Under the pieces are notes generated by a model, which saw only the letters and a program-made list of their open reading frames with translations, made no database searches and was not told where the DNA came from. Positions 1 to 17,138 of a stretch of 20,870 nt of DNA are shown here, one piece after another. Both the position numbers and the translations under genes were made by a program. Each line of letters begins with the position of its first letter. Positions within the stretch are counted from its first letter, which is position 1. The stretch is from a virus. Lineage: Duplodnaviria; Heunggongvirae; Uroviricota; Caudoviricetes. The stretch spans positions 1-20,870 of the IMG/VR virus record IMGVR_UViG_2896595138_000005; one strand, given 5' to 3'.

Positions 1-819
1 ATGTGTCAGGTATTTGGTGTATCCAGGAGCGGTTATTACAACCGGGTACAGCATGAACCCTCAGACAGAAAACAAAGTGATGAGCGGCTAAAACTGGAGA
101 TTAAGGTGGCACATATCCGCACTCGCGAAACATATGGAACCCGGCGGCTCCAGACGGAGCTGGCAGAGAATGGCATCATCGTTGGTCGTGACCGACTGGC
201 ACGTCTTCGTAAGGAGCTAAGGCTACGCTGTAAGCAGAAACGCAAGTTCAGAGCGACTACGAACCCGAACCACAATCTGCCAGTTGCGCCAAATCTGCTG
301 AACCAGACGTTCGCTCCTACAGCACCAAATCAGGTCTGGGTGGCGGACCTGACGTATGTTGCCACACAGGAGGGATGGTTGTACCTCGCTGGCATCAAAG
401 ATGTTTATACGTGCGAAATTGTCGGCTACGCCATGGGAGAGCGCATGACAAAAGAGCTGACAGGTAAAGCCCTGTTTATGGCGCTCAGGAGCCAGCGCCC
501 ACCTGCCGGGCTAATCCACCACTCTGATCGAGGTTCACAGTACTGCGCATACGATTACCGGGTCATACAGGAGCAGTTTGGTCTGAAAACATCAATGTCG
601 CGTAAAGGTAACTGTTACGACAACGCTCCGATGGAAAGCTTCTGGGGAACGCTGAAAAATGAGAGCCTGAGCCACTATCGTTTTAATAACCGGGATGAAG
701 CCATCTCAGTAATACGGGAATACATTGAGATTTTCTACAATCGTCAGCGTCGTCACTCTCGTCTGGGGAATATCTCCCCGGCAGCCTTCAGGGAAAAATA
801 TCATCAGATGGCTGCTTAA
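1..819 (+). CDS. IS3-family transposase OrfB (DDE integrase catalytic domain)
   Basis: 272-aa ORF with recognisable IS3 OrfB features ([24 protein letters not shown]); same protein as 17139..17957. Confidence 0.85.
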   Translation: MCQVFGVSRSGYYNRVQHEPSDRKQSDERLKLEIKVAHIRTRETYGTRRLQTELAENGIIVGRDRLARLRKELRLRCKQKRKFRATTNPNHNLPVAPNLLNQTFAPTAPNQVWVADLTYVATQEGWLYLAGIKDVYTCEIVGYAMGERMTKELTGKALFMALRSQRPPAGLIHHSDRGSQYCAYDYRVIQEQFGLKTSMSRKGNCYDNAPMESFWGTLKNESLSHYRFNNRDEAISVIREYIEIFYNRQRRHSRLGNISPAAFREKYHQMAA

Positions 820-862
820 AAAAAGAACAAATGGTAGTGTCCGCTATTGCCAGTACACCTCA
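1..862 (+). mobile_element. IS3-family insertion sequence (IS600-like), partial right-hand copy; window begins inside the element
   Basis: 1..862 matches 17139..18000 of the complete copy base for base where compared; the two diverge immediately after ...CCAGTACACCTCA. Confidence 0.85.
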
Positions 863-982
863 AAGTGCAAGCTGGTTCTTTAGTTTTGTTACTTCTTCAA
901 GTTCAGTGAACACCCCGGACTTAATTAAAGCGTTACGAGCGATTGTCTCTTTCATTCTCGTTGTTAAGCGGATTGATGACAT
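860..982 (-). pseudogene. truncated small ORF whose stop codon is supplied by the IS terminus
   Basis: GAGG-type RBS 7 nt upstream of the ATG at 982; the reading frame ends at TGA 862..860, which is the terminal TCA of the IS on the other strand. Confidence 0.25.
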
Positions 983-1161
983 ATTAATTCCTCTCAAATA
1001 AGTGGTTTGCTGCCTGATTTCATTTTCTGGCGACCAACACAAGTCACACCCATTTCACTGCGTGGCTTGCGGTAGTAAAGATTGTGCCTGTCTTTTAACC
1101 ACATCAGGCTCGGTGGTTCCTTCACTTTCCACAGTCAAAGGAAAGGAAGGTTCAGCGGCTG

Positions 1162-1578
1162 CTATTGAGGTGCTGGAAGTTCAGAAACCGATTTATCAAA
1201 TGCTTTTCGCTCACGTGAAATAGTTTCTGCCTGATTAATCATTACCTGAGCCTGCTGGCGAACAGCTTCACTGGCAGGCTCTTTTGTTAAGAGCTGTGTA
1301 AAACCCGCGATAATGTTGCTGGCTAACATCTCAAACCGTTTTTTCTGAATATCTCTTGATTCTTCATCAATTGGTGGTTCACTATTGCTTAGTGCCGTTA
1401 CATATACGCGAATTGCCGCTGACCGGACATCATCAGGAAGATGATCAAATGTACTGGCTCTTGTTTTTACAAGTTCGACAATATTTGCCTTCTTAATATC
1501 TTCAGTTTTTTCATCAAGTACTGAGATAAAATTTTTTACTGATGCTTCTAATAACGCTTCTAATTTATTTAAATCCAT
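1162..1578 (-). CDS. hypothetical protein immediately downstream of N (pL operon)
   Basis: 138 aa from the ATG at 1578, with a GAGG RBS; sits 2 nt after the N stop codon. No recognisable family. Confidence 0.45.
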   Translation of the reverse strand: MDLNKLEALLEASVKNFISVLDEKTEDIKKANIVELVKTRASTFDHLPDDVRSAAIRVYVTALSNSEPPIDEESRDIQKKRFEMLASNIIAGFTQLLTKEPASEAVRQQAQVMINQAETISRERKAFDKSVSELPAPQ

Positions 1579-1580
1579 AA

Positions 1581-1964
1581 TTACCTCGCTGTCAGTTGTT
1601 TTGATTTCCGGTAGCCTGCCGCGTAAATGGCTACGTTTGGAAGACATACACCAGTTTCTGGTTGCTTATGTCCAAACTCATTCGCGTACACAATGGCCGC
1701 TCGCTCCAGATTGCGTCTGTATTCTTTCTGTTGCCAGATCACGTCCTGTGCCATGAACTTAATTGGCTTAGCGTCTTCTATGCGCTCAGGCGTTTCGTGA
1801 GTACCTTTAGCCTGAATCTGCGCTCTGCTTAGAGTAGGGCGGTGTAATACTTCTGAACTTATTGCTTCTTCGCGGGCCAGCACGCCGTTAGCTAATGCCT
1901 TTGCCTTTAAACGCTCACGACGACGAGAACGTGAATTGCCTTTGAACTGAGTTCTGCGTGTCAT
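1581..1964 (-). CDS. N: N-family transcription antitermination protein (P22 gp24 / Stx-phage N type)
   Basis: 127 aa with an N-terminal arginine-rich motif (NSRSRRRERLKAK) and a C-terminus YAAGYRKSKQLTAR typical of the N family; lies downstream of OL and a boxB hairpin. Confidence 0.8.
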   Translation of the reverse strand: MTRRTQFKGNSRSRRRERLKAKALANGVLAREEAISSEVLHRPTLSRAQIQAKGTHETPERIEDAKPIKFMAQDVIWQQKEYRRNLERAAIVYANEFGHKQPETGVCLPNVAIYAAGYRKSKQLTAR

Positions 1965-2128
1965 ATAGACCTCCTGATGAACTTTGGTGGTGTGGTAGGT
2001 GGGAGACCCATTTTGACCTGTTTCGGCCTACTTCAATTCGGCAATAGTCCCGCAGGCCTCGCCGCTTTACGTGCGACATATTCCCGTCCATGAACCCTTC
2101 ACCACACCCAAAGTTCACTTTGGTTATT

Positions 2129-2143
2129 GCGCTTTGTCAGCGC
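2129..2143 (-). promoter_or_regulatory. nutL boxB-like hairpin
   Basis: Minus-strand GCGCTGACAAAGCGC: 5-bp stem with GACAA pentaloop, between OL and the N start. Confidence 0.55.
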
Positions 2144-2214
2144 CGTAGATTCATATTCGAATCGTTGTATATTCACCGCCCTGGTGAGTAGTGCGTCCTG
2201 CTGATGGCTTAAAG

Positions 2215-2300
2215 ATAACCTAGGTTATAGCGGCGGTCAATAACTTAATTTATGGATTCTGATAAATAAGTTATAAGTGATGGATAATAAAGGTATTTTA
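2215..2300. promoter_or_regulatory. OL operator cluster / pL region
   Basis: Repeated near-palindromic sites ATAACCTAGGTTAT (2215..2228, perfect palindrome), ATAACTTAATTTAT (2240..2253) and ATAAATAAGTTAT (2262..2274), sharing half-sites with the sites in front of cI. Confidence 0.6.
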
Positions 2301-2410
2301 TTTTTGTAAATGTTGCGGATTGGTCGGTATTGGAAGGGGGGCGCTGTATTGCTGGCGTGTTGGTTCGTGGTTTACCGCATTTGCGGCTGTTAAATATGGG
2401 GGACGATCGC

Positions 2411-2445
2411 GAGGCAAAGAAAACCCGGCGCGGAAGCCGGGTTTG
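2411..2445 (-). terminator. rho-independent terminator after the 44-aa ORF
   Basis: Minus-strand AACCCGGC-loop-GCCGGGTT stem followed by TTTTCTTTG. Confidence 0.55.
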
Positions 2446-2459
2446 AGATTTAGTTATTT

Positions 2460-2594
2460 TCAGCAGCTCGGATAAGAGCGGAAGTGCTGACGAACATGTT
2501 CGAGCTCACCGAAACGTATGCGGCAGTAACTGCGCACATAAACCGGCTTGTCGTGTTCGTAGATGAAGTCATCGCGATTAACATCGTGAGCCAT
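2460..2594 (-). CDS. small hypothetical protein (44 aa) not in the supplied ORF track
   Basis: Hand-translated from the minus strand as MAHDVNRDDFIYEHDKPVYVRSYCRIRFGELEHVRQHFRSYPSC; AGGAG RBS 7 nt upstream of the ATG at 2594; terminator follows 16 nt after the stop. Confidence 0.45.
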   Translation of the reverse strand: MAHDVNRDDFIYEHDKPVYVRSYCRIRFGELEHVRQHFRSYPSC

Positions 2595-2715
2595 AGCTTT
2601 TCTCCTGTTTTTGTATACAGCCTGTTTACCCGAACAGGTTGTAGTTTGTTGGGAGAACCGCTATCCTTGGCTTGCGGTTGCCAAGGGTGTAGCGGTAGGT
2701 AATCCTCCATACACT

Positions 2716-2740
2716 TCGGAAATACTGGATATATTTCCGA
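2716..2740. promoter_or_regulatory. perfect 9-bp inverted repeat, candidate operator or hairpin
   Basis: TCGGAAATA-N7-TATTTCCGA, between the terminator of the 177-aa gene and the 44-aa ORF. Confidence 0.35.
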
Positions 2741-2768
2741 CCCAAAAAGCCCCGTTCCCTCGGGCTTT
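2741..2768 (-). terminator. rho-independent terminator after the 177-aa gene
   Basis: Minus-strand AGCCCGAGGGAACGGGGCT stem-loop followed by TTTTT, starting at the TAA stop codon. Confidence 0.5.
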
Positions 2769-3300
2769 ATTCTTTTGTTCCGCCATCAATCATCGCAAAA
2801 GATTCCACAATCAGACTGATACGCTTGGCTTCATCTTTTGTCAGGTCGCGAGGCAGGTTGCCAATGGTGACGATAAGATCTCCGCGCAATGGAATCGGCA
2901 GTTCAAATGTTTTTACACCAACCTGTACGTCAGCTACCGCCTTCTTCTTAGGTGCCATCTTTTTACGCTCCTTTTTTTTATTTACATCACCAACTGACAC
3001 ATTAATCTCACCATTCTGGTAGGAGATAAATTTATCAATAGCACTTTGCATTCGGCTTTTGTATGCCTGCAAAGATGATTCAGAGGGTTTGCTTTCTGCT
3101 GAGTCTGCGTACGAACTTGCTAAGTTGGCAACGCTATAATCACGGATATCGGCATCGGTGAAATCCGCCCCAAGAACAGTAAGAAGGCGCAGGGAAGAGT
3201 CACGGAGATTGCGGGCTGTAGCATCATTGACGATACCAAGCTCAGGAAGCATCTGTAAGAAGTCCTGAAATGCTTTGATGGTGTAGCTTTTGGTTTGCAT
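2767..3300 (-). CDS. hypothetical protein (177 aa) in the cI-to-OL cargo position
   Basis: Long ORF with a lysine-rich central linker (NKKKERKKMAPKKK); no recognisable family; flanked by its own 5' hairpin and 3' terminator. Confidence 0.6.
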   Translation of the reverse strand: MQTKSYTIKAFQDFLQMLPELGIVNDATARNLRDSSLRLLTVLGADFTDADIRDYSVANLASSYADSAESKPSESSLQAYKSRMQSAIDKFISYQNGEINVSVGDVNKKKERKKMAPKKKAVADVQVGVKTFELPIPLRGDLIVTIGNLPRDLTKDEAKRISLIVESFAMIDGGTKE

Positions 3301-3575
3301 AAAAAAGCCTCATACAGTTGATGAGGCAATACTAATTTGATCGTCAAAACAAATCAAGACCCAAGAAACGATCGTTGATTCCTTTCTTTGTGACAATACA
3401 GTCAAATCAAGTTTTACAAGGATTACTTTTCTTCGATTACATTAAAGGCCGCACTTCTGCGACCATCCATCACCAAAATGTCTCTTCACTCATCCGAAGA
3501 AGCAGCAATCCGGGTCAGCACGCACAAGCTCAAGCGCATCAGTCAGCGAAAGTTCAGTACTGTACTGATGCCATT

Positions 3576-3830
3576 TCATATCCTTCCGCATCCAATAGAT
3601 TTTCCATCTATCCAGAGAACGTATGTACTTGATTCTTGCTGATGGCAGGATGTTTGTTTCACCTGGGTTGCCCTGCCACACGGGCGCTGTTCGCCGATAT
3701 CTATCGTTTGGTCATTGATGCTATAAACAATATCCAGTTCATTGCGGATATGTTCAGGCGGCCTTATGCTTTCAATGAATTGGTGAACTTCTTTTTTGAC
3801 CGCTTGATATTCAAGGTCAGTGAACGCCAT
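3576..3830 (-). CDS. hypothetical protein (84 aa) co-transcribed with cI
   Basis: GAGGAGG RBS 5 nt upstream of the ATG; starts 37 nt after the cI stop on the same strand; no recognisable family. Confidence 0.55.
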   Translation of the reverse strand: MAFTDLEYQAVKKEVHQFIESIRPPEHIRNELDIVYSINDQTIDIGEQRPCGRATQVKQTSCHQQESSTYVLWIDGKSIGCGRI

Positions 3831-3867
3831 CTATCCTCCTCACCCAAACGTTTCTTCAGGCCACTGG

Positions 3868-4575
3868 TTACCAGCTATGCGATGACCAGAATACTCTGCC
3901 AATAATCCTTACGGTTTTATGAAATTCATCTCTATCCATTACTTCATCCGGGTACTCTTCGCGATTTATTGATCTGATTATCACCGATGTAGGAGTGGCG
4001 ATTAATGTTTTTACTCGCAACAAATCAGACTGGCAAATAGCGTAGGTTTTACCATCTCTGATGGTGGTATCTTGTGTGTTAACACCAACAACATCGCCAT
4101 CGTGAAGAGTTGGTTCCATGCTTTGACCTGTTACCCTTACCAGCTTGGCAGAACTTTCAGTTACCCCCATCTTTTTCAGATAGTACTTTCTGAAAACCAA
4201 AGAGAACTCTGATGATTCTTCTATCTCGCAGCTACCGCTTCCAGCCGAAAGCGAAACGTTAAGAAGAGGCAATGCGACAAACTCGTCATCGTTTTTTTTA
4301 ATGTCTTCCCATACCACAGCTTTTAAAGATGACTCACGGATATTGGATGGTTCTTCATGTGTACCATCCCTCATTTCACCAATACCAGAACTAAGCCATT
4401 CAGGGCGTACTTTTAAAGCATTAGCTAACTCAACCATCTTGCGAGATCCGTTTGTTTTACCGGATGACATCTTCTGTATGGCTGGCTGAGATATTCCAAC
4501 CATGTCCGCAAGCTGTGATTGCGACACCCCTGCCGATCTCATGGCTGCATTTAGTCTTTCTGCGAATGTTTTCAT
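3868..4575 (-). CDS. cI: CI-type prophage repressor (N-terminal HTH, C-terminal S24 LexA-like autopeptidase domain)
   Basis: HTH-like segment QSQLADMVGISQPAIQKM and a C-terminal S24-like region (VTGQSMEPTLHDGDVV, LRVKTL). Start placed at MKTFAERL (4575) rather than the first in-frame ATG (4605) because an operator site lies between them. Confidence 0.8.
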   Translation of the reverse strand: MKTFAERLNAAMRSAGVSQSQLADMVGISQPAIQKMSSGKTNGSRKMVELANALKVRPEWLSSGIGEMRDGTHEEPSNIRESSLKAVVWEDIKKNDDEFVALPLLNVSLSAGSGSCEIEESSEFSLVFRKYYLKKMGVTESSAKLVRVTGQSMEPTLHDGDVVGVNTQDTTIRDGKTYAICQSDLLRVKTLIATPTSVIIRSINREEYPDEVMDRDEFHKTVRIIGRVFWSSHSW

Positions 4576-4587
4576 ATCCACAAATCT

Positions 4588-4662
4588 ATAACTACGGTTA
4601 TCCAAAGTAAAATAATAAAGGTTATTGCTATCTTTTATAACTTGGGTTATCCTTGGTTATAA
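4588..4662. promoter_or_regulatory. OR operator cluster with divergent pRM/pR
   Basis: ATAACTACGGTTAT (4588..4601), ATAAAGGTTAT (4615..4625), ATAACTTGGGTTAT (4637..4650) and GGTTATAA (4655..4662), between the divergent cI and cro starts. Confidence 0.6.
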
Positions 4663-4686
4663 GCAATGGCTGAAAGAGGTATGCTC

Positions 4687-4911
4687 ATGAATTTAGTAAT
4701 TCAACGAGCCTTGAAGATTGTCGGTAGTCAAAAGCGGCTTGCCGACAAGTGTGGTGTAACGCAGCCAGCAGTACACAAATGGCTGAAAGGCGGGCAGGTT
4801 TCTCCAGAGAAAGTTACCGCCATCGTTAACGCCACTGGAGGGCAGATCAAGGCTTACGAAATTCGCCCAGATTTACCACACCTGTTTCCAAAACCGAATC
4901 AGGCAGCATAA
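4687..4911 (+). CDS. cro: Cro-like HTH repressor
   Basis: Small HTH protein (KRLADKCGVTQPAVHKWLKG) divergent from cI; AGAGGT RBS favours the ATG at 4687 over the ORF-track start at 4666. Confidence 0.7.
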   Translation: MNLVIQRALKIVGSQKRLADKCGVTQPAVHKWLKGGQVSPEKVTAIVNATGGQIKAYEIRPDLPHLFPKPNQAA

Positions 4912-4949
4912 GTAACACCGCTATTTTCACAATGGGCATTCGTCCTACG

Positions 4950-4964
4950 TCGCTGACAAAGCGA
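4950..4964 (+). promoter_or_regulatory. nutR boxB-like hairpin
   Basis: TCGCTGACAAAGCGA, same GACAA pentaloop as nutL, between cro and cII; a boxA-like CGCTATTTTCACAA lies about 25 nt upstream. Confidence 0.5.
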
Positions 4965-5049
4965 GCCCCAAGATATCTGACCAACTAAGGCCATATGCGT
5001 TTCCATGCATACCTTTCAACTAACTATTCACTATTGGAAATCTTAAGAA

Positions 5050-5349
5050 ATGGAACAAACAAGTTACAGCAAACTATCACAGCGCGACGTTGATCGCGCA
5101 GAAACAGATTTACTTATCAACCTGTCAACGCTTACACAGCGCGGTCTGGCAAAGATGATTGGCTGCCATGAATCGAAGATCAGTCGTACCGACTGGCGGT
5201 TTATTGCTTCGGTCTTGTGTGCTTTCGGAATGGCATCAGACATCAGTCCGATTAGCAGGGCTTTTAAGTATGCGCTTGATGGACTCACCAATAAAAAACG
5301 CCCGGTGTGCAAAACCGAGCGTTCTGAACAAATCCAGATGGAATTTTAA
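5050..5349 (+). CDS. cII: CII-like transcriptional activator
   Basis: 99-aa HTH protein (TQRGLAKMIGCHESKISR) in the canonical position after cro and nutR. Confidence 0.65.
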   Translation: MEQTSYSKLSQRDVDRAETDLLINLSTLTQRGLAKMIGCHESKISRTDWRFIASVLCAFGMASDISPISRAFKYALDGLTNKKRPVCKTERSEQIQMEF

Positions 5350-5371
5350 CAACATCCAACGAGGTAATTAT

Positions 5372-5643
5372 ATGCGAAACAAAGGCTTTAATCCACCTGA
5401 TACACACAAAGAAGCTAAGCGTTTGCGCTTCCTTCGTTCCATTGATGAAAGAACTCAAATCTCTTTTGTGAAAGTTGCCAGAACTGAGCTTCTGAAAGCT
5501 GAGGCGAGGGCGTTGCTCCCGCCTCTACCAAAAGAGGAGGGATATACGTTCATTCCAAACGCATTTCTGGAAAAGCTGCTCAAAGAAGACATATCCGTAA
5601 GTCAGTTTAACGATGTTCTTAAGGTCTTTCGTCAAGGCAGGTA
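5372..5643 (+). CDS. hypothetical protein between cII and the replication genes
   Basis: 90 aa from an internal ATG with a GAGG RBS, inside the longer ORF-track frame 5159..5644. Confidence 0.4.
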
Positions 5644-5646
5644 GTG

Positions 5647-6531
5647 ATGAGCAATACAGCAAAAATCTACGATTTCAGCGCCGCACACGAGCGCAGGAGC
5701 AACAGGATGGAGAACCAGAAAACTGGTTACATTCCGTTGTACCGGAGCATTCTGAAACAGTCATGGGCGAAAGATGTTTATCTTCGCACCCTGTGGGAAA
5801 ACCTTCTCCTGAATGCTGCCAGAAAGCCATACAAAGCGAATTTCAAAGGTCATGAATGGCATGTGCAACCCGGTCAACTGGTTGTGACAGCAGCTGATTT
5901 AGGTCTTCAGTTATGCGACAGGCATGGCAAGCCAGCAAGCCGTGATCAGGTTGAGCGGATGCTTCAGGTTTTTGTGAAAGAGGGGATGATCTCCATTGAT
6001 GGAGAGAAGCAAAAAGGTCGTGTGATCACCATCACAAATTACCATGAATATGCTCAAAAAATGGACAATTCACCCGCACATGAAGCCGCACAAACAACCG
6101 CACATCATGAACAAGAAGGTATTAACAAGAATATAAATAATATCTCTAATACTGACGTATTAGAGAGTGCCACAGCAGACAAAAAGTCTGACAAGAAAAA
6201 ACCTTCCGTTAGCTGTCAGGATGTTGTCGATGCTTACCACGAAATCCTTCCTGAAGCGCCAAGAATCCGCGCACTGAATGACAAGCGTAAAAACCAGATC
6301 CGAACGTTCTGGCGCAAAGCCGGAGTGATAACCCGCCAGCTTGACGGGCATGGGTTCACGATGCAGGACTGGAGAAATTATTTGAGCTACGTAGGCGAAA
6401 ATTGCCGATGGATGTTCGAAGAGCGCCCAAACCATCAGCGCGGAACCGTCTGGCACAAAAAGGGATTTGATTACCTGCTTAACGATAATACCTACCTGAA
6501 AGTTCGTGAGGGTGAACACGATGACCGATAA
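5647..6531 (+). CDS. phage replication initiation protein (O-like)
   Basis: 294 aa in the O position, ending 11 nt inside the start of the helicase gene; assignment is by position and general resemblance. Confidence 0.6.
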   Translation: MSNTAKIYDFSAAHERRSNRMENQKTGYIPLYRSILKQSWAKDVYLRTLWENLLLNAARKPYKANFKGHEWHVQPGQLVVTAADLGLQLCDRHGKPASRDQVERMLQVFVKEGMISIDGEKQKGRVITITNYHEYAQKMDNSPAHEAAQTTAHHEQEGINKNINNISNTDVLESATADKKSDKKKPSVSCQDVVDAYHEILPEAPRIRALNDKRKNQIRTFWRKAGVITRQLDGHGFTMQDWRNYLSYVGENCRWMFEERPNHQRGTVWHKKGFDYLLNDNTYLKVREGEHDDR

Positions 6532-8032: not shown

Positions 8033-8473
8033 ATGAAAAAACTAACCTTTGAAATTCGATCTCCAGCACATCAGCAAAACGCTATTCACGCGGTACAGCA
8101 AATTCTTCCAGACCCAACCAAACCAATCGTAGTAACCATTCAGGAACGCAACCGCAGCTTAGACCAGAATCGAAAGCTTTGGGCTTGCCTTGGTGACGTC
8201 TCTCGTCAGGTTGAATGGCATGGTCGCTGGCTGGATGCAGAAAGCTGGAAGTGTGTGTTTACCGCGGCATTAAAGCAGCAGGACGTTGTTCCTAACCTTG
8301 CCGGGAATGGCTTTGTGGTAATAGGCCAGTCAACCAGCAGGATGCGTGTAAGCGAATTTGCGGAGTTATTAGAGCTTATACAGGCATTCGGTACAGAGCG
8401 TGGCGTTAAGTGGTCAGACGAAGCGCGACTGGCTCTGGAGTGGAAAGCGCGATGGGGAGATCGGGCTGCATGA
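8033..8473 (+). CDS. ninB: NinB recombination protein
   Basis: 146 aa with the characteristic N-terminus [21 protein letters not shown] and [10 protein letters not shown]. Confidence 0.8.
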
Positions 8474-9159
8474 CTATCAAATCAAATACGCCAGCACACG
8501 ACAAGGACTGCTGGCAAACGCCACTTTGGCTTTTTGATGCGCTGGATATTGAGTTTGGATTCTGGCTGGATTCGGCAGCGAGCGACAAAAATGCTCTGTG
8601 CGCTCACTGGCTAACTGAGGCCGACGACGCGCTCAATTCTGAGTGGGTAAGCCACAGTGCAATCTGGAATAACCCACCGTACAGCAATATCAGGCCGTGG
8701 GTGGAAAAAGCCGCTGAGCAGTGTATACAACAGCGACAGACGGTAGTTATGCTTGTGCCAGAGGATATGTCAGTCGGATGGTTCAGCAAGGCTCTGGAGA
8801 GTGTTGACGAAGTTCGCATCATCACTGATGGACGGATTAATTTTATCGAACCATCGACAGGGCTGGAGAAAAAGGGAAACAGTAAAGGCTCAATGCTGCT
8901 GATTTGGCGACCGTTCATCAGTCCCCGGCGAATGTTTACTACCGTATCCAAAGCGGCATTGATGGCGATCGGGCAGGGCGGCATGAGGCGACAGCGACGA
9001 AGTATTACCGACATAATCTGTGAAAACTGCAAATACCTTCCAACGAAACGCTCCAGAAATAAACGCAAGCCAATCCCAAAAGAATCTGACGTAAAAACCT
9101 TCAACTACACGGCTCACCTGTGGGATATCCGGTGGCTAAGACATCGTGCGAGGAAATGA
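8470..9159 (+). CDS. phage DNA N6-adenine methyltransferase (Dam type) with C-terminal basic extension
   Basis: NPPY catalytic motif; ATG at 8470 overlaps the ninB stop (ATGA); last ~60 residues are basic and not typical of the family. Confidence 0.7.
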
Positions 9160-9828: not shown

Positions 9829-9949
9829 AGGTATCAACATAACAAAATCGTTATATGCATTCAAGGCCTGTAGTTGACGACAACACATATCCGGGCTATA
9901 TTCCTCATACGCCAGCAAAATCTGGCGTCGGGATTGAGACCCCGGATGT

Positions 9950-10420
9950 TTACGGAGCGATATGAGACGCGCCCGCGTCTTTTTTCATATCGTTTGCACA
10001 GTCACATTCGCGATTTATGGTGGGCTGTGTGGGGGAGCCGAAACCGATAACCATTTCTTTGTTGAAGAGACAAAGCGAGCAGGCCAGTCCGATCGCGGTC
10101 CAACTGAGCCCCATTTCACGGGATTTTTCGGTAATACCATTCTCCCGATTGCTCCAGCGTTCCATAATCCAGTGGATCCACTCCTCCTGCTTAGGGAAGA
10201 GTAAAAACGGAATGGTCACCGGCAGGCCATAATCAATATTACGCGGGTCCGTTGTCATGCCCCAGCCGATAATGAACTGAGCCGGGTTGGTACGGTAAAA
10301 CTGTTTTAGTGCAGGCAATATTTCAGGATTCTGGCGAATGCGCTGTAGGCGTTCCATCCGCCATTCAAAAACCATCTGGTAATCAGGATGTTTAAAATCG
10401 AAGGGGAATGGTAACGGCAT
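9950..10420 (-). pseudogene. terminase large subunit, N-terminal fragment only
   Basis: Directly follows terS; only 156 codons where several hundred are expected; no portal, head or tail genes follow. Confidence 0.6.
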
Positions 10421-10422
10421 AC

Positions 10423-10977
10423 TTAGCCCATCATTTTTCTATACACCTCTGCGGCCTGCTCAGGCGTTAATTTGGTAATTTCTGTTCTGACTGGTCCTCC
10501 GTCAGCGCCAGTCACTTCATTTTTGACGTTGTCTTTAAACGCCTGAACAGAAACATGACGCCCAAGCAACTCAAGGTTTTTAACCTTATCAGGCCATTTG
10601 ATTTTCTTCAGAAGTGCGGCGCTATCTGCGGATACCATCTCCACGACATCCATTCCTGATAGCGTTGTGCGCCATACCTTAGGCCAGTCTTTAATGGGCT
10701 TTAGCTCACCGTTTTGCAGGAGAATGTCGAGCACATCCATCTGGTCGATTTCAACCAATCTACGAAGAACATAGGCGGCATCTATACCCGTCTGCTCAAC
10801 GCGGGCGGATTTAAGTTCAGCAACGAATTTTTGAACATTAACATTTGCTAATAATCGAGATGCCTGCTCATTGGCGGTCTTCTCGCTGTAGCCCGCCCTG
10901 ATAGCTGCCTGTGTGCCGTTCAGATCTTTCAGGTACTCACGGGCAAACAGCTCTTGTTTGTCGGTGAGCTTTGCCAT
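10423..10977 (-). CDS. terminase small subunit (P27 family)
   Basis: N-terminus [35 protein letters not shown] is the family signature. Confidence 0.8.
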
Positions 10978-11078
10978 TATTTGTGCTCCGTTTATCCGTT
11001 AAAAGGGATATCAGTTAAGTTATCCCGTGTAGGGTATAAGCCATTATCAAGCCCACCAGTAGATGGGCTTTGTAATGG

Positions 11079-11336
11079 CTACTTCGCTTTTGCTTCCGCT
11101 CGCTTACGCCGGCGCTCTTCTTTCCTCTCGGCTTTTGCCATGTCCATGAATGTCTGCATGATCGAGTTCCGCATCATGTAGCTAACAAAGTGATGATTGA
11201 CACAGCCGTTGAGGCGCAGCTGCTCGCCAAACTCATCCACCGAGGCCAATGCTTCCATCATGCCCTTCTCGCCTTTCATGAACTCTGAGAAGTCGCGCCC
11301 CGCTCTGGAGGCGCATTCAATGACACGATCACTCAT
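11079..11336 (-). CDS. hypothetical protein with basic C-terminal tail
   Basis: 85 aa ending KAERKEERRRKRAEAKAK; start overlaps the stop of the KilA-N gene (ATGA). Confidence 0.45.
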   Translation of the reverse strand: MSDRVIECASRAGRDFSEFMKGEKGMMEALASVDEFGEQLRLNGCVNHHFVSYMMRNSIMQTFMDMAKAERKEERRRKRAEAKAK

Positions 11337-11830
11337 CCCGGAAGCCCGGGGATCGTTATCTGCAGCTGGTTAGCCAGGGAGTTAATCTCAGCGACCAACA
11401 CTGGCTTCGTATAGCGCCATGCCGCCAGCCCTTGTCCACAGAAGCTCGCCATATCTTTTTTCTGATCAAACTCATGACACTTCATATTGAGCTGCGCACT
11501 TAAGCTGTTGCGATGCTGAAGTTCTCCGGTGAAGTAGTCATCCAGGACTTTATAGGCTGCATATTTAAATCCGGGGTTTAGCCATGCTGCATAATCATAA
11601 GCAACAAACTTCCCGCCATATGTTCCACCGTGTACACCGCGCTCAGTAAAAACCACAGATTCGTGGTTTTTCTCCAGCTCGGCTAAGAACTCTTTGGTCT
11701 GCTTGTTTCGCAGGTAGTGGTACGGAGATTCAGATTCACTTTTACCACTGGCTTTCCACATATCAGTGAGGCAGATCATTCCTGATTCATCAACACGGAT
11801 CGGTGTATTAAAAAGCGTGATTGCTTTCAT
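11333..11830 (-). CDS. KilA-N domain protein
   Basis: N-terminal KilA-N-like segment (ITLFNTPIRVDESGMICLTDMWKASGK). Confidence 0.6.
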   Translation of the reverse strand: MKAITLFNTPIRVDESGMICLTDMWKASGKSESESPYHYLRNKQTKEFLAELEKNHESVVFTERGVHGGTYGGKFVAYDYAAWLNPGFKYAAYKVLDDYFTGELQHRNSLSAQLNMKCHEFDQKKDMASFCGQGLAAWRYTKPVLVAEINSLANQLQITIPGLPG

Positions 11831-11977
11831 GGCGTCTTTACCTTTTAGAAAGATGAGCCTGTTCGCACAGAAAAGCCGTCCCCGAGATGGTCGCCACCAT
11901 ATACGGCAATTCTCAGGCTCAGCTTTCTGAAAGACTCGGGGTTTATATGCGCTGCGATGCGCGGTTTACTGCGGACA

Positions 11978-12003
11978 TATAAAAGCCCCGCAAGTGCGAG
12001 GCT
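11978..12003 (-). terminator. candidate rho-independent terminator after Rz
   Basis: GC-rich imperfect stem (AGCCTCGCA / TGCGGGGCT) followed by TTTTAT on the minus strand. Confidence 0.35.
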
Positions 12004-12035
12004 CATTAAATGGACTTTGTGATTTGCAAAAAAAT

Positions 12036-12503
12036 TTATTTCAGGCACTGAGTCCTGATGTACTCCTGAAGCATTCTCAATGCTGTCTGGTCGCTGATGA
12101 TTCCGTCCCGGATACCGAGAACGTTTCGTCCAGCAACTGGAGAGAGTTCGACGGTGGCATCATTGCCCATGCCGGAGGCGCTGGAGGTTTCGGCTGAGGA
12201 TGGCACAGGGCATTTTCCTTTGACGAGCACCCGACCACCATTATCAAGCTTGCGCCGAAGAGCATCATTTTCAGCTTTCGCATTGGCTAACTCCTTCGTG
12301 TATTTAGCATCGAGTGCATCAGCAGCACGCTGGCGCTGCTGCATGTCAGTAATGGTTGCGTTCGCCAGCTTCAGTTCTCTTGCGTTTTTGTCGCGCTGCT
12401 CTTTGTAGGTAATGGCGTTATCACGGTAATGATTAACAGCCCATGACAGGCGGACGATGATGCAGATAACCAGAGCGGAGATAATCGCGGTGACTCTGCT
12501 CAT
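12036..12503 (-). CDS. Rz: Rz i-spanin
   Basis: N-terminus [17 protein letters not shown] with a transmembrane segment, then an [19 protein letters not shown] region. Confidence 0.75.
12077..12283 (-). CDS. Rz1: Rz1 o-spanin lipoprotein, embedded in Rz in another frame
   Basis: Lipobox VVGC after a signal peptide, then a proline-rich segment (PKPPAPPAW). Confidence 0.7.
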
Positions 12504-12996
12504 TGCTGCCCCACAAACAGACTTCACGCTCAATCTCACGACGGGTCATCAGCCCTTTCCATTGCTTACCGCCAGCATATGTCCAGCGACGTAGCTGGTC
12601 ACATGCGCCTTTGATATCGCCCTGGTTTATTTTGCGAAGAAGCGTCGATGTTCTGAAATTGCCAGCGCCCACGTTGTAAACGAACGAGTAAAGAGCGCCG
12701 CGCGTTGTTTCCGGTATATCGACTTTGATGTACGGGTTAATTTGTCTGGCGACAGTGGCAAGGTCTTTATTCAGGAGAGCTTTGCATTCTGCTTCGGTAT
12801 ACGTTTTACCAGGCATGATGTCTTTTCCGGTGTGTCCGTGACATACAGTCCATACACCAATGATATCTTTGTATGGTATGTAGCTGACACCTTCCAGACC
12901 ATCGTTACCACCTGGGCCAGTGATTAACACAGATGCTATAGCAACAGCCCCGCCACCAATAGCAACTGCAACAGCCTTGCGTAATGATGGCGACAT
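12433..12996 (-). CDS. R: SAR endolysin (phage 21 R-type lysozyme)
   Basis: N-terminal Gly/Ala-rich signal-anchor ([20 protein letters not shown]); start overlaps the holin stop (ATGA); 3' end overlaps the Rz start by about 70 bp. Confidence 0.8.
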
Positions 12997-13211
12997 TATT
13001 CACCTCTCGCAGCCTTACGCTTGTCTTCTCTTAATTTGAAATACAGATTCGTCAGATAAGTCAGAAGCCCCAGAAGCAGACTTCCCAGCACACCAATCGC
13101 AGCCCACTGTGATGGACTGACCTGATCCAACCACTGCAAAAACCAGTAGCCGGCACTGCCGGCGGAGGTGCCGTAGGCAATGCCCGTTGAAATTTTGTCC
13201 ATGGATTTCAT
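12996..13211 (-). CDS. S: class II holin (phage 21 S-type pinholin)
   Basis: Dual-start MKSMDK motif and two transmembrane segments; start at 13211 inside the longer ORF-track frame. Confidence 0.75.
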
Positions 13212-13327
13212 AGCCTCACCTCCGCAAATAACGGATGGCGTAGTTCTTATATTGGGAAGGGAAAAAAAAGGCCGCAGCGTAACTGTCACTGATGAATTCA
13301 GGATAGCCAGTGGCTACGGCTCAGTTA

Positions 13328-13403
13328 TGGTGCTGGTTAACGGACTTGAACCGCTACCCATTCGCTTACAAGGCGACTGCTCTACCATTAGAGCTAAACC
13401 AGC
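13328..13403 (-). tRNA. tRNA-like gene, anticodon UGU (Thr) by hand folding
   Basis: 76 nt with 7-bp acceptor stem, GCTC/GAGC D-stem, CTTGTAA anticodon loop, TTCAAGT T-loop and encoded CCA. Confidence 0.5.
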
Positions 13404-13408
13404 ATATT

Positions 13409-13483
13409 TGGCGGGACAGCGTGGACTCGAACCACGATAAGAAGGTTAACAGCCTTCCGTAATGACCTTTATACGACTGACCC
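13409..13483 (-). tRNA. tRNA-like gene, anticodon GUU (Asn) by hand folding
   Basis: 75 nt with perfect GAAGG/CCTTC anticodon stem, CTGTTAA loop, CGTGG-TTCGAGT-CCACG T-arm and encoded CCA; one mismatch each in acceptor and D stems. Confidence 0.45.
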
Positions 13484-13672
13484 AAATAAAAAATCCCGAA
13501 AGCAGGCTCTATTCCTATGTGCTCTCGAGTTTATGATGCGCATGTCAGTGCGCTTAGCGAAAAACGCCGTAAACCCTCGCCCGACAGGGCGGGGAGCAGT
13601 CACAACTTAAAGATGAGGTGGGTAAAAAACCGAAAGAATGTGAACGGATATAAACCTGCCATTCTTGAGTCA

Positions 13673-13701
13673 AATTTACCCAACTTTATTCAAAAAGTCA
13701 A
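13673..13701 (-). promoter_or_regulatory. late promoter pR' (lambda-like)
   Basis: Minus-strand TTGACT, 17-nt spacer, TAAATT, within TTGACTTTTTGAATAAAGTTGGGTAAATTTGACTCAA. Confidence 0.6.
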
Positions 13702-13743
13702 TATCATGCCGTTAAGATGTTGCCATCCATGGCAATCATGCCG

Positions 13744-14367
13744 CTAACGTGTGACCGCATTCAAAATGTTGTCTGCGATTGACTCTTCTTTGTGGCATTG
13801 CACCACCAGAGCGTCATACAGCGGCTTAACAGTGCGTGACCATGTGGGTTGGGTGAGGTTTGGGATTAGCATCGTTACAGCGCGATATGCTGCACTTGCT
13901 GGCATCCTTGAATAGCCGACACCTTTGCATCTTCCGCACTCTTTCTCGACAACTCTCCCCCACTGCTCTGTTTTGGCTATATCAACTGCCAGACCTGTTC
14001 CGTGGCAATCTCTGCATCTTGCGCCCGGCGTCGCGGCACTACGGCAATAATCCGCATAAGCGAATGTTGCGAGCACTTGCAGTACCTTTGCCTTAGTATT
14101 TCCTTCGAGCTTTGCCACACCACGGTATTTCCCCGATACCTTGTGTGCAAATTGCATCAGATAGTTGATAGCCTTTTGTTTGTCGTTCTGGCTGAGTTCA
14201 TGCTTACCGCAAAATGCAGCCATTCCGAATCCGGCTTGTGATTGCGCCATCCCCATAGCAGCCATCACATCAGTACCGGAAAGAGAGTCAGAAGCCGTAG
14301 CCCGTGGTGAGTCGCTCATCATCGGGCTTTTTAGCGAATGAAATTTAGCTACGCTTTCGAGTCTCAT
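13744..14367 (-). CDS. Q: late antiterminator Q (lambda Q type)
   Basis: 207 aa with a CxxC...CxxC zinc-binding motif (CRDCHGTG...CGRCKG); recalled as near-identical to lambda Q. Confidence 0.8.
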   Translation of the reverse strand: MRLESVAKFHSLKSPMMSDSPRATASDSLSGTDVMAAMGMAQSQAGFGMAAFCGKHELSQNDKQKAINYLMQFAHKVSGKYRGVAKLEGNTKAKVLQVLATFAYADYCRSAATPGARCRDCHGTGLAVDIAKTEQWGRVVEKECGRCKGVGYSRMPASAAYRAVTMLIPNLTQPTWSRTVKPLYDALVVQCHKEESIADNILNAVTR

Positions 14368-14552
14368 CGTCTTCCCCTCTTGCCCTGTTTGACCATCAGG
14401 ACGCCGTTAACTATTACGTGACGCTCGCCTTTGCTGTCTCGGTTGTACTTGAGCACTGTTCCTCTTGCGCAGGAAAGCATCCTCGCCACTTCGGTCTGAT
14501 TGCCTCGTGTCTGGATAAGAAGCTCTGGTATCGTTTGAATTGTGGCGTTCAT
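14364..14552 (-). CDS. ninH: NinH-like small DNA-binding protein
   Basis: Segment GNQTEVARMLSCARGTV resembles lambda NinH. Confidence 0.6.
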   Translation of the reverse strand: MNATIQTIPELLIQTRGNQTEVARMLSCARGTVLKYNRDSKGERHVIVNGVLMVKQGKRGRR

Positions 14553-14911
14553 ACGTTCTCCAGTTCGGTGATTTTTATTCCAAGCCTTCCGCCTGGTACT
14601 TTCACACCACGAATTACGCGAATGTCATCGAATTGCTCGTCGTCTTCCGCAAATCCGGCGTGGATAAGAGAGTCGAGTAGCCCCTTCAGGATGTTGTCGA
14701 GGTCGCGGCGGCGGGAGTCTGGAACGTCTGCGATGACTTTGATGCGGAGTCGTGCTTTGGTGAAAATATCTAACTTGAGTTGGCGGATGATTTGCTGAAC
14801 GTCTTTTCGGTATTTCTGGCCTTTATAGCTGATGTAGTATTGGCTTCCCCGTCTTCGCCAGTAGGTGTTCAGCGACGGTGGGTATGGAAGCACAAACTGA
14901 TATTCGTTCAT
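14549..14911 (-). CDS. rusA: RusA-family Holliday junction resolvase
   Basis: 120 aa with the RRRDLDN motif characteristic of RusA. Confidence 0.8.
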   Translation of the reverse strand: MNEYQFVLPYPPSLNTYWRRRGSQYYISYKGQKYRKDVQQIIRQLKLDIFTKARLRIKVIADVPDSRRRDLDNILKGLLDSLIHAGFAEDDEQFDDIRVIRGVKVPGGRLGIKITELENV

Positions 14912-15198
14912 GGCTTAATCTTCCCCTCCTTCAGCAGTATCGCCTGCGTCCTGATCACGCCTTCGAGGTGGTAAAGTCTGGCGTCTTTGTTGTCGAGGTT
15001 ATGGGTGCGTCGGTCGATTTCATCGTGACACGCGCTACAAGCCCATGCGCCGATCAGGTCGTCAGGCTTCATTCCCGTTCCGCAAATTCCAGCCATCCGG
15101 TAATGTGCCAGAACTGTAGTTTCAGGATTGCCATTGCATACGCCGTAAATACGTACCTGGCATTCTCTGCCGCGCGCTTCTTTGCGTAAGTTAGCCAT
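14908..15198 (-). CDS. YbcO-like protein (DUF1364)
   Basis: 96 aa, cysteine- and histidine-rich, immediately upstream of rusA as in DLP12. Confidence 0.55.
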   Translation of the reverse strand: MANLRKEARGRECQVRIYGVCNGNPETTVLAHYRMAGICGTGMKPDDLIGAWACSACHDEIDRRTHNLDNKDARLYHLEGVIRTQAILLKEGKIKP

Positions 15199-15926
15199 TA
15201 AGCAGCCTCCCCTGTTACTTTCAGCATTCCGTTATAGAGCAGCTTTCTGGTCAGCCACTGTTGGCCACGCCCGGTGATTTTTGTGGTGAACGATATCTGT
15301 ATTCCGTGATTTGTGTTGACTGCTGTTTCTTTCACTGTGAAATAGCCGCGATCCATATATTCCTGCATTGGCACATTGCGCCGGGAACCTGAAGCAATAA
15401 GGATTTTGTGATCGCGCATCCACGCAAACAGTTTGTTTGGACCAATTCCAACAACCTTTGCAAAGTTTCCAATCAAAATTCCGCTGGCCTCGCTAACGCG
15501 ATCGGCAAACTCAACTTTAGGTGCTGCGAGAGCAAGCTGTTTCTCCAGTTCAGCCTTCTGGTCTTCAAGGTCGGCCGCAAGGCGCAATGCCTCAGAAAAG
15601 GTTTGTGGGATTTTCGCGGTTGCCCCTTCAAGCTCTCGCCAACGGTCAACAAGACGAGCGGTGAATTCCGGCGACAACTGGGCAACGACAATAATGCTGT
15701 CGCGCTTACCTTGTTCGCCTTCGAAGACGTAATGCTCGTACTGAACATTGAACCCTAAGTTATTGATTCTTTCGGAAACCTCAAATTGAGGATGCCGGAT
15801 AACACCATTTTTAGCCAGCGTTTCGATGGTACGTTTCACATTGTCATGACGCTTACCCACCAACTCAGCGATTTCAATGCTGGTCATTTTGATGGCGTTG
15901 CTATTTATCAGCTCGTTCATTGTCAT
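15198..15926 (-). CDS. antirepressor (Rha-like N-terminus, KilAC-type C-terminus)
   Basis: N-terminal TSIEIAELVGKRHDNVKRTIETL; two-domain layout typical of phage Ant proteins. Confidence 0.65.
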   Translation of the reverse strand: MTMNELINSNAIKMTSIEIAELVGKRHDNVKRTIETLAKNGVIRHPQFEVSERINNLGFNVQYEHYVFEGEQGKRDSIIVVAQLSPEFTARLVDRWRELEGATAKIPQTFSEALRLAADLEDQKAELEKQLALAAPKVEFADRVSEASGILIGNFAKVVGIGPNKLFAWMRDHKILIASGSRRNVPMQEYMDRGYFTVKETAVNTNHGIQISFTTKITGRGQQWLTRKLLYNGMLKVTGEAA

Positions 15927-15951
15927 GTCCTCTCATATTGAAAATTCAGCA

Positions 15952-15975
15952 ATAAAAAACCCAGCCGAAGCTGGG
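15952..15975 (-). terminator. rho-independent terminator between the ORF6N gene and the antirepressor gene
   Basis: Minus-strand CCCAGC-TTCG-GCTGGG followed by TTTTTTATT. Confidence 0.55.
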
Positions 15976-15994
15976 TCGTTGCGTTGGCAATCTG

Positions 15995-16672
15995 TCAGTA
16001 GTGATGTAGTGAAGGAGGTAATTCTTTGTTCTTAAGTCTTACCCATGCAGAAAGATTCGTTGGTCCGTCTGGCTCATTAATATCAACATCTCGTGTGTGA
16101 TTGATTAAAACGTCTCTCGCCATTCCGATAACATACGAGAACTCATGACCGTAGTCGTGGCATCTGCCGGAATAGTTAGACTGAATTTGTCTTAGCGCCG
16201 GATACAGTTCGCGGAATAATGCCTGTGAGCGGTTGGCATAATCCCACAACCATACCAGACTGTTTGCATCTTTTGCAGAAAGCTCGCTGGTTTTCTTCTC
16301 GTGATGACCTGCGCTTTTCGAAGTCTGGCTGAAATAGCAGTCTTCCAGTTTTTCGAACACGTCCCATGCCTGATCGGTTTCGAGCATCTTCGCGTGACGG
16401 GCTGCGCCTCGTTCTGTCCAGAGGATGAGCGAGCGGGCATTTTTACCAACTAACCCGATTGTTTCGGGTCTGTTCTTAAACTCGCGTAATTCGTTTTTTT
16501 CAATTTTAAAGTAATGCTTTCCTACCACGAATCGCATCGTGTTGTTCAGAAAATTATCAGAAATGTTTTTGATTTTTGTTCCGTATAACTGCGCCAGAAG
16601 TTCAGTTGTAATAACGGGGATCTGGTTGTGGGTGATTGCAGGAAGAGTGTCGACAGAAATTTGAGTGAGCAT
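15995..16672 (-). CDS. ORF6N-domain phage protein
   Basis: Start assigned to MLTQ (GGAG RBS 8 nt upstream); the longer ORF-track frame runs into the IS; the IS left end lies about 65 bp upstream of the assigned start. Confidence 0.5.
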
Positions 16673-16800
16673 AACGATAACTCCGTACATTTGGTCATTA
16701 TCGCCACCTTCTGGTCTCAATAATCTGGTGGCGAGCTGAGGTAGCCTGAGTTTAACGGACACTCCTTCCTGAAATAGAATGGCATCAGAAGGAGCTAATA

Positions 16801-17103
16801 ATGAGCAGAAAAACCCAACGTTACTCTAAAGAGTTCAAAGCCGAAGCTGTCAGAACGGTTCTTGAAAATCAACTTTCGATCAGTGAAGGCGCTTCCCGAT
16901 TATCCCTTCCTGAAGGCACTTTAGGACAATGGGTTACCGCCGCCAGAAAAGAGCTCGGTACTCCTGGTTCCCGCACGGTGGCTGAACTGGAATCTGAAAT
17001 TCTGCAACTGCGTAAGGCGTTAAATGAAGCTCGCCTTGAGCGAGATATATTAAAAAAAGCAACAGCGTATTTTGCACAGGAGTCGCTGAAAAATACGCGT
17101 TAA
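16801..17103 (+). CDS. IS3-family transposase OrfA (HTH, leucine zipper)
   Basis: 100 aa; the A7G frameshift site lies near its 3' end. Confidence 0.85.
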
Positions 17104-17138
17104 TCGAACAATGGCGACAACAATTTCCCATTGAAGCG

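Follow-up and report, generated by a model that had tools for sequence, protein, structure and literature searches.

The DNA considered here, referred to throughout as the window, is the 20,870-nucleotide (nt) stretch formed by positions 1 to 20,870 of the IMG/VR virus record IMGVR_UViG_2896595138_000005, and it includes a classical lambdoid immunity and early-control region in which an O-like replication gene and a DnaB-type P gene come after cII. We focus on two short RNA hairpins in this region, one ahead of the antitermination gene N and the other just past cro, which we regard with high confidence as the boxB elements of the nutL and nutR sites of a lambdoid prophage carrying an N antitermination module of the type known from phages 933W, H-19B, and HK97. 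The genes and features on which this assignment depends are as follows.

1581 to 1964, minus strand: N antitermination gene, 127 amino acids (Pfam PF25694 N_peptide, 57.5 bits; cut-off 27.9)
1899 to 1940, minus strand: core of the arginine-rich motif GNSRSRRRERLKAK, N residues 9-22, taken from the translation
2129 to 2143, minus strand: nutL boxB hairpin GCGCU-GACAA-AGCGC, within the nutL site annotated in 933W and the same as the P22 nutL boxB
2205 to 2240, minus strand: pL, sigma-70-like, with -35 TTGACC (2240-2235) and -10 TATCTT (2217-2212), from a promoter scan
3868 to 4605, minus strand: cI-type repressor gene with helix-turn-helix (HTH) and Peptidase_S24 domains
4587 to 4666, plus strand: oR/pR region between cI and cro, with operator-like repeats TATAACnnnGGTTATCC
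4666 to 4911, plus strand: cro, an open reading frame (ORF) matching HTH/P22_Cro families
4950 to 4964, plus strand: nutR boxB hairpin UCGCU-GACAA-AGCGA, within the nutR site annotated in 933W, its 15-mer the same as the H-19B nutR boxB
5050 to 5349, plus strand: cII, the first gene 3' of nutR (Pfam Phage_CII, E = 6e-35)

In lambdoid phages nutL lies between pL and N, and nutR between cro and cII/tR1, and the two hairpins occupy these places. Reading of the sequence and a pattern search locate the nutL 15-mer, GCGCTGACAAAGCGC, 164 nt 5' of the N start codon, and the nutR 15-mer, TCGCTGACAAAGCGA, 38 nt past the cro stop codon (4911) and 85 nt ahead of cII (5050). The pL promoter overlaps an operator-like palindrome, TATAACCTAGGTTAT, the motif of which recurs between cI and cro, and its -10 element is followed by AUCAGCAGGACGC, the same sequence as that with which the lambda pL leader begins. 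By analogy, the pL transcript is predicted to start near 2205, which would therefore place the nutL boxB at about +63 to +77.

The original prediction, made from the sequence alone, was that matching GACAA hairpins are present at these two locations and that they are the boxB elements of nutL and nutR. Sequence reading, pattern search, folding, and a scan of both strands confirm the former statement, and the latter is backed by the annotation of 933W, the identity of the N proteins, and matches to H-19B oligonucleotides that are described below. When folded alone, the nutL 15-mer gives a 5-base-pair (bp) stem with a GACAA loop at -8.5 kcal/mol (z -3.5 relative to shuffles), and the nutR 15-mer forms the same structure at -6.4 kcal/mol (z -2.4); both hairpins are also retained in the centroid structure of longer leader transcripts. 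When both strands of the window are searched for GACAA loops closed by any 5-bp Watson-Crick stem, exactly two come up, the nutL and nutR hairpins. Among 2000 dinucleotide-preserving shuffles, such hairpins arise at a mean of 0.041 per window, and two are reached in only 1 of the 2000. Despite their location on opposite DNA strands, both sites show GACAA when read along their own early transcript, which runs leftward from pL for nutL and rightward from pR for nutR, and both hairpins have the short G+C-rich stem, the purine-rich, GNRA-like loop of 4-6 nt, and the early-transcript sense of a lambdoid boxB. Neither is an intrinsic terminator, a reading that we rejected for both hairpins because no U-tract follows either of them.

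Changes in the stems across related sites were assessed by gapless alignment of the distinct hairpins in two separate sets, comprising 10 pentaloop 15-mers and 7 tetraloop 14-mers, which were analysed apart because MAFFT placed no gap between 4-nt and 5-nt loops. Standard pairs occupy 94% of the cells in the pentaloop set and 97% in the tetraloop set; sliding the 3' partners lowers this share to 22-60%. Of the five stem positions, two in each set have changed on both sides, the outermost pair, for example, being found as G-C, C-G, U-A, and A-U, and there are G.U intermediates among the stem pairs. These observations bear on the idea that the hairpins are chance inverted repeats or protein-binding DNA palindromes. 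Although 5-bp inverted repeats do occur in regulatory intergenic DNA near operators, chance is opposed by the shuffled sequences, and the compensatory substitutions, with their G.U wobbles, are a signature of RNA. Moreover, the loop lacks symmetry: although the two sites lie on opposite strands, each invariably shows G(A/U)CAA when read along its transcript. The operator motif is different and longer. We therefore rejected a DNA operator on the basis of the loop, the RNA-type wobble pairs, and the operator motif, and regard this whole class of explanation as practically negligible.

The N protein of the window is 100% identical to that of 933W and 98% identical to that of HK97, and the nutL and nutR features of GenBank record AF125520 (933W; the nutL feature is 2048-2114 of locus L001) contain exactly these hairpins within the same flanks. 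In addition, the supplement of a study on H-19B gives oligonucleotides antisense to the boxA (RS662), spacer (RS663), and boxB (RS664) of its nutR site (PMC3526286), and these match the window at 4907-4930 with 0 mismatches, at 4928-4949 with 1 mismatch, and at 4946-4969 with 1 mismatch, respectively, the boxB 15-mer being identical. Footprints of the H-19B nutR, which is described as having two hairpins, show boxB and the spacer to be protected by N plus NusA/NusG and boxA to be unprotected (PMC3526286); a second hairpin is likewise present in both spacers of the window. For this H-19B site, with a boxB identical to that of the window, N binding and terminator read-through have been published (PMC3526286, PMC4499122). 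Given the N protein identical to that of 933W, the annotated 933W nut sites, and the H-19B oligonucleotide matches, the hairpins are therefore the known nutL and nutR boxB elements, a feature already annotated in 933W and studied experimentally in H-19B. It might be argued that the nutR hairpin mainly serves Rho, as a piece of the Rho-dependent terminator or rut region that follows cro, and is not an N site, given that rutA and rutB are annotated on either side of the nutR boxB in the lambda record. This proposal does not account for nutL having a matching hairpin, for the footprint of N with NusA/NusG over boxB, or for the way in which, as set out below, loop type strictly follows the N-terminal motif of N, and we consider it very improbable. 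A dual role of nutR, in Rho/rut function and in the response to N, is likely, but an exclusive Rho/rut role is not.

If the hairpins are the cognate sites of this N protein, they should accompany it in other phages, and phages with the same N that lack equivalent hairpins, which had been named in advance as the observation that would count against the prediction, were looked for among 80 viral contigs encoding N at 98-100% identity. None emerged at nutL, where CTACG followed by GCGCTGACAAAGCGC is present exactly in 79/79 contigs with enough upstream sequence, and CTACG followed by TCGCTGACAAAGCGA is present exactly, on the opposite strand, in 74/75 contigs with enough flank. The N ORF is disrupted in the sole nutR exception (L083), for which nutR probably lies beyond the available flank. 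The distance from N to these nutR sites takes 44 different values, and the cro-region sequences next to them are of 36 distinct kinds; the hairpins therefore travel with N through many immunity modules. In these contigs, 143/144, 180, or 276 nt of leader separate the nutL boxB from the N start codon, and six loci from which nutL had seemed to be absent merely have the longer, 276-nt leader. That form, seen in L016-L019, L065, L066, and other contigs with the same N, has an extra ACGCUA-GCAA-UAGCGU hairpin.

A wider survey covered 265 loci drawn from phage records, 11 genome contigs, and four viral-contig sets, with the N-terminal motif of N cross-tabulated against the nutL and nutR hairpins. 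The four main classes are given here, the denominators being loci with enough flank.

933W/HK97 type (..FKGNSRSRRRERLKAK..), 98 loci: nutL G(A/U)CAA pentaloop in 97/97; nutR GACAA pentaloop in 92/93
Sakai/g341c type (..G(T/S)AA(S/G)RRR(A/E)(R/H)RA..), 110 loci: nutL GAAA or GCAA tetraloop in 109/109; nutR GAAA tetraloop in 103/105
P22 type, 47 loci: nutL GACAA; nutR GACAA
HK620 type, 2 loci: nutL C[GAAA]U; nutR C[GAAA]U

The boxB loop follows the class of the arginine-rich motif with no exception between the 933W and Sakai types. In the Sakai/VT2, POCJ13, g341c, and SI8-type phages (L005-L008, L103-L182), boxB has a GNRA tetraloop, as UCGCU-GAAA-AGCGA, UGGCU-GAAA-AGCCA, or, in one case, with GCAA. 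One Sakai-type viral contig in the L103-L182 series, with an N of the tetraloop class, has a lambda-type GCCCU-GAAAA-AGGGC hairpin at a nutR-like position and may be a mosaic with a non-cognate nutR. In a Winslowiella prophage (L101), a lambda-like motif and a GAAAA loop of the lambda type go together with a P22-like C-terminus, and the N proteins of Lonsdalea (L098, L099) have a P22-like arginine-rich motif, a C[GUCAA]C boxB, and a C-terminus that adds a lambda-like ...KGKSIPLI tail; both are further instances of modular shuffling. N-like genes near-identical to E. coli phage N were also seen on very short contigs labelled Xanthomonas pisi and as a Segatella copri metagenome-assembled genome (L092, L093, L097), which probably reflect contamination or mis-binning rather than true hosts.

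The survey also clarifies a further element of the original prediction, in which the GACAA loop was said to fit the P22-like C-terminus of N. The resemblance itself is real, with 67% identity to P22 N over the last 30 residues, the only segment aligned by BLASTP. What does not follow is the type of boxB, because each of the four main classes includes the C-terminal tail YAAGYRKSKQLTAR (90, 82, 3, and 2 loci), which is thus common to N proteins that use GAAA/GCAA tetraloops (Sakai/g341c, 82 loci) or C[GAAA]U (HK620 type). Published work assigns boxB binding to the arginine-rich motif and RNA polymerase binding to the C-terminus of N (PMC4499122, PMC8632103), and the type of boxB is better predicted from the N-terminal motif than from the conserved C-terminus.

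Within the arginine-rich motif of the window N, GNSRSRRRERLKAK, alignment to the P22 sequence GNAKTRRHERRRKL makes Lys20 (codon 1905-1907, minus strand) the equivalent of P22 Arg11. We aligned the motif cores on the conserved glycine, using 9 distinct pentaloop-associated and 8 distinct tetraloop-associated sequences, and position +11 after this glycine is the only column in which the residues of the two groups do not overlap, with Lys/Arg accompanying pentaloops and Ala accompanying tetraloops. In the P22 complex (peptide numbering Asn1, Lys3, His7, Arg11), the flipped-out C8 of the loop contacts His7 and Arg11 (PMC12550061, PMC11480772). The P22 contact residues Asn1, Lys3, Arg5, Arg6, His7, Arg9, and Arg11 correspond to N1, R3, R5, R6, R7, R9, and K11 in the window, with conservative replacements at positions 3, 7, and 11, and this short similarity between the motifs was not detected by BLASTP. 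By reference to the P22 structure, a contact between Lys20 and the cytosine may be expected in the complex of the window N, and the identical RNA sequence suggests that the loop would adopt the same GNRA-like fold with the C flipped out and would also be recognised by P22 N. Searches of PDB sequences with N, its arginine-rich motif, or P22 gp24 gave nothing useful, probably because the peptides are too short. The separation into specificity classes is not a new idea, since the epsilon34 genome paper predicted a distinct boxB specificity for the N-terminus of the tetraloop class (PMC2629481). The natural pairing of a basic +11 residue with an extruded loop C, and of Ala with a plain GNRA tetraloop, agrees with the nuclear magnetic resonance (NMR) structure of the P22 complex.

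Outside the boxB hairpins, the nut sites of the window contain the following elements.

2144 to 2148, minus strand: CUACG motif adjoining the 5' side of the nutL boxB
2148 to 2163, minus strand: nutL spacer hairpin GAUUC-GAAUAU-GAAUC, present in the centroid structure
2173 to 2187, minus strand: hairpin UCACC-AGGGC-GGUGA in the pL leader, with an equivalent in lambda (CACC-AUGAA-GGUG, just 5' of lambda boxA)
2187 to 2195, minus strand: CGCACUACU, where the equivalent 933W nutL feature begins (CGCATTACT in 933W); a weak match to boxA
4919 to 4927, plus strand: boxA-like CGCUAUUUU of nutR, at the start of the annotated 933W nutR
4934 to 4945, plus strand: nutR spacer hairpin GGGC-AUUC-GUCC, with a G.U wobble here and GGAC in 933W and H-19B
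4945 to 4949, plus strand: CUACG motif adjoining the 5' side of the nutR boxB

The CUACG motif is found 5' of boxB at both nut sites in every 933W-type and Sakai-type locus examined, irrespective of the stem sequence, and was not found next to boxB in P22, lambda, or HK620; it may be part of the spacer bound by NusA. Across loci the spacer hairpins have conserved stems and variable loops, and the stems of nutL and nutR differ from each other. At nutL the stem is constant, with GAAUAU, AAAUAU, AAGCAA, or AGUGAU as the loop, whereas the Sakai-type stem is GUCGA/UCGAC. At nutR the 3' arm, GUCC, is invariant in 195/195 tabulated loci, and GGGC replaces GGAC in the window and six related contigs (position 4936). 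An alternative nutR helix, in which GGGC pairs with GCCC 3' of boxB (4965-4968), is predicted in the window but was rejected because there is no consistent covariation across the 195 loci. Directly 3' of the nutL boxB (2100-2123, minus strand) lies a hairpin, CCAAAGUGAACUUUGG, followed by GUGUGGUG, which resembles lambda CAAAGCAGAAGGCUUUGGGGUGUGUG at the equivalent place and may be a boxC or N-leader element. A strong terminator-like hairpin with a U-tract is also present antisense to the 3' end of cII (5295-5325, minus strand), where the P22 annotation has the terminator of the oop RNA.

Several points weigh against the assignment of the hairpins to functional nut sites. The nutL site has no recognisable boxA consensus, offering only CGCACUACU, which is a poor match to both the lambda (CGCUCUUA) and rrn (UGCUCUUUA) reference boxA sequences (PMC2724277). 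The boxA of nutR, CGCUAUUUU, has two mismatches to the consensus (CGCUCUU(U)A-like), and the 933W-type nutL has GGUGAAUAUACAACG (window 2173-2195, minus strand) where the Sakai-type nutL (L007) has a canonical boxA, GGCUCUUUAAACAACG. Neely and Friedman (2000) are said to have found boxA dispensable for H-19B N, which is reportedly independent of boxA, NusB, and S10, and a weak boxA here would fit such independence. The hairpin caller required pairing and so biased the covariation counts, a bias that is limited because almost every locus yielded a call, and many of the surveyed contigs are close relatives, so that the counts are not independent events. Rfam gave no family matching nut or boxB, and the absence of an independent model hit for the hairpins follows from its having no such family. 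Finally, the prophage is rearranged, and its nut sites may no longer serve a complete lytic programme. The features concerned are listed here.

1 to 819, plus strand: OrfB transposase of an IS3-family insertion sequence (IS), 272 amino acids, beyond the first gene downstream of N
9909 to 9985, plus strand: match to the Hfq-binding small RNA isrK (Rfam, 70.6 bits), at the orientation flip
10423 to 10977, minus strand: terminase small subunit gene
13328 to 13403, minus strand: tRNA-Thr (anticodon TGT)
13409 to 13483, minus strand: tRNA-Asn (anticodon GTT)
13744 to 14367, minus strand: Q
16801 to 17957, plus strand: second copy of the IS3-family OrfB transposase, 272 amino acids, same Pfam profile

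This arrangement gives some substance to the proposal that the sites are genuine nut boxB elements but relics of a rearranged, IS-disrupted prophage, having no current role or acting only in trans with co-resident prophages. The left IS3 copy lies just past the L0079-like gene, so that the pL operon is cut within the window, and a second IS3 copy and then an IS66 transposase gene are present further on. Beyond the nin region gene orientation flips (9909-16762), and from about 9950 it is the minus strand that encodes the late block, with genes for the terminase small subunit, lysozyme, P21-type holin, Q, RusA, and two antirepressors, and transcription from pR therefore runs head-on into it. Moreover, none of the complete E. 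coli genomes searched covers at least 80% of window positions 1-6000. On the other side, N, nutL, nutR, pL, cI, cro, cII, O, and P are intact and near-identical to their counterparts in functional phages. We consider relic status unlikely, though to be taken more seriously than the alternatives discussed above; it concerns the present usefulness of the sites and not their identity, and hence is compatible with their being the nutL and nutR boxB elements of a 933W/H-19B/HK97-type module. The sequence of that module is intact, yet its capacity to drive a complete lytic programme may have been lost.

Other observations concern the rest of the window. The two IS3 OrfB copies have the same orientation and bracket a prophage segment, and the second is followed by a phage-integrase-family gene (18253-19200, minus strand) and the IS66 transposase gene (19312-20490, minus strand). 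Both tRNA genes lie between Q and the holin gene, the usual place in Shiga toxin (Stx) phages for tRNAs and toxin genes, and no stx genes are present here. In one ORF (8410-9159, plus strand) a Dam DNA adenine methyltransferase domain is combined with a NinE domain.

On the basis of published work with H-19B, P22, and lambda, from which N binding, the fold of the loop, the contact between Lys20 and the cytosine, and the resulting antitermination are carried over by analogy, the module would be expected to operate in the following way. With cI repression lifted, RNA polymerase would start leftward at pL and rightward at pR and transcribe each nut site, after which each boxB would form its 5-bp stem and GACAA loop, the latter with the GNRA-like fold of the P22 complex in which the third base (C) is flipped out. 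The arginine-rich motif of N would bind the hairpin as a helix in the major groove, Lys20 taking the place of P22 Arg11 near the flipped-out C, the middle of N would recruit NusA, which binds the spacer, and the C-terminus of N would engage RNA polymerase. The RNA-tethered complex would then allow the polymerase to withstand the Rho-dependent terminator that follows nutR as well as terminators further downstream.

For the window itself, the results confirm a standard lambdoid immunity and early-control region with an N-nut module of the 933W/H-19B type, and so aid its annotation. More generally, the pairing of the +11 residue with the loop offers a possible means of grouping prophages by antitermination compatibility. 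Lambdoid and Stx prophages might even fall into antitermination groups that are independent of their immunity groups and are set by one RNA base and one protein residue, a suggestion that we put forward tentatively and rate as less probable than its converse. If the groups are orthogonal, the N of the window, which is under a non-933W repressor, could act in trans on a co-resident 933W-type Stx prophage and not on one of the Sakai type, and the early expression of Stx phages would be coupled or insulated between the prophages of one cell.

Comparison with known systems places the two sites more exactly. The original prediction had called the GACAA pentaloop the P22/phage 21 type, and the P22 half of this description holds: the nutL 15-mer, GCGCUGACAAAGCGC, is identical at 15/15 positions to the P22 nutL boxB, which is the RNA in PDB 1A4T (PMC11480772), and the hairpins have the GACAA loop closed by U-A on a G+C-rich stem that is typical of P22. 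The N proteins of the window and P22 (gp24) share the motif F-x-G-N-x-(K/R)-(S/T)-R-R-x-E-R with a basic +11 residue as well as the C-terminal similarity, although BLASTP finds none beyond the C-terminus. The P22 nut sites differ in having a canonical boxA, GCUCUUUA, and a short spacer with neither a hairpin nor CUACG, and the P22 nutR boxB has a C-C mismatch closing the loop (CCGC-C-GACAA-C-GCGG) where nutR of the window has a U-A pair. The phage 21 half does not hold. The phage 21 boxB (PDB 1NYB) is likewise a hairpin to which an N protein binds through its arginine-rich motif, but it has a CUAACC hexaloop with a flanking C-C pair (PMC12550061), and a boxB of this type, with its UMAC-like fold and longer stem, is ruled out by the GACAA loop of the window.

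Lambda boxB occupies the same genomic position as in the window and likewise has a purine-rich pentaloop closed by U-A on a 5-bp stem, and lambda shares the pL leader sequence, whereas its loops are GAAAA at nutR and GAAGA at nutL, its arginine-rich motif, MDAQTRRRERRAEKQAQW, and C-terminus are unrelated in sequence to the window N, and its nut sites have a canonical boxA and a short spacer. The nut sites of Sakai/VT2, POCJ13, epsilon34, and g341c have near-identical nutR flanks (GGACAUUCGUCCUACG-boxB), CUACG, and a spacer hairpin, and go with the same C-terminus of N; their boxB loop is GAAA or GCAA, their nutR boxB differs from that of the window essentially by one missing C, and their arginine-rich motif has Ala at +11. 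The closest systems are 933W, H-19B, and HK97, with which the window shares an N protein at 98-100% identity, identical nutL and nutR boxB hairpins, and the same layout of boxA-like element, long spacer with its own hairpin, CUACG, and GACAA boxB, together with a 127-residue N. Relative to 933W and H-19B, nutR of the window has GGGC in place of GGAC in the spacer hairpin, creating the G.U pair, and one changed base just 3' of boxB. Its prophage is rearranged, and its cI/cro immunity module, unlike the 933W one, resembles that of SH2026Stx1.

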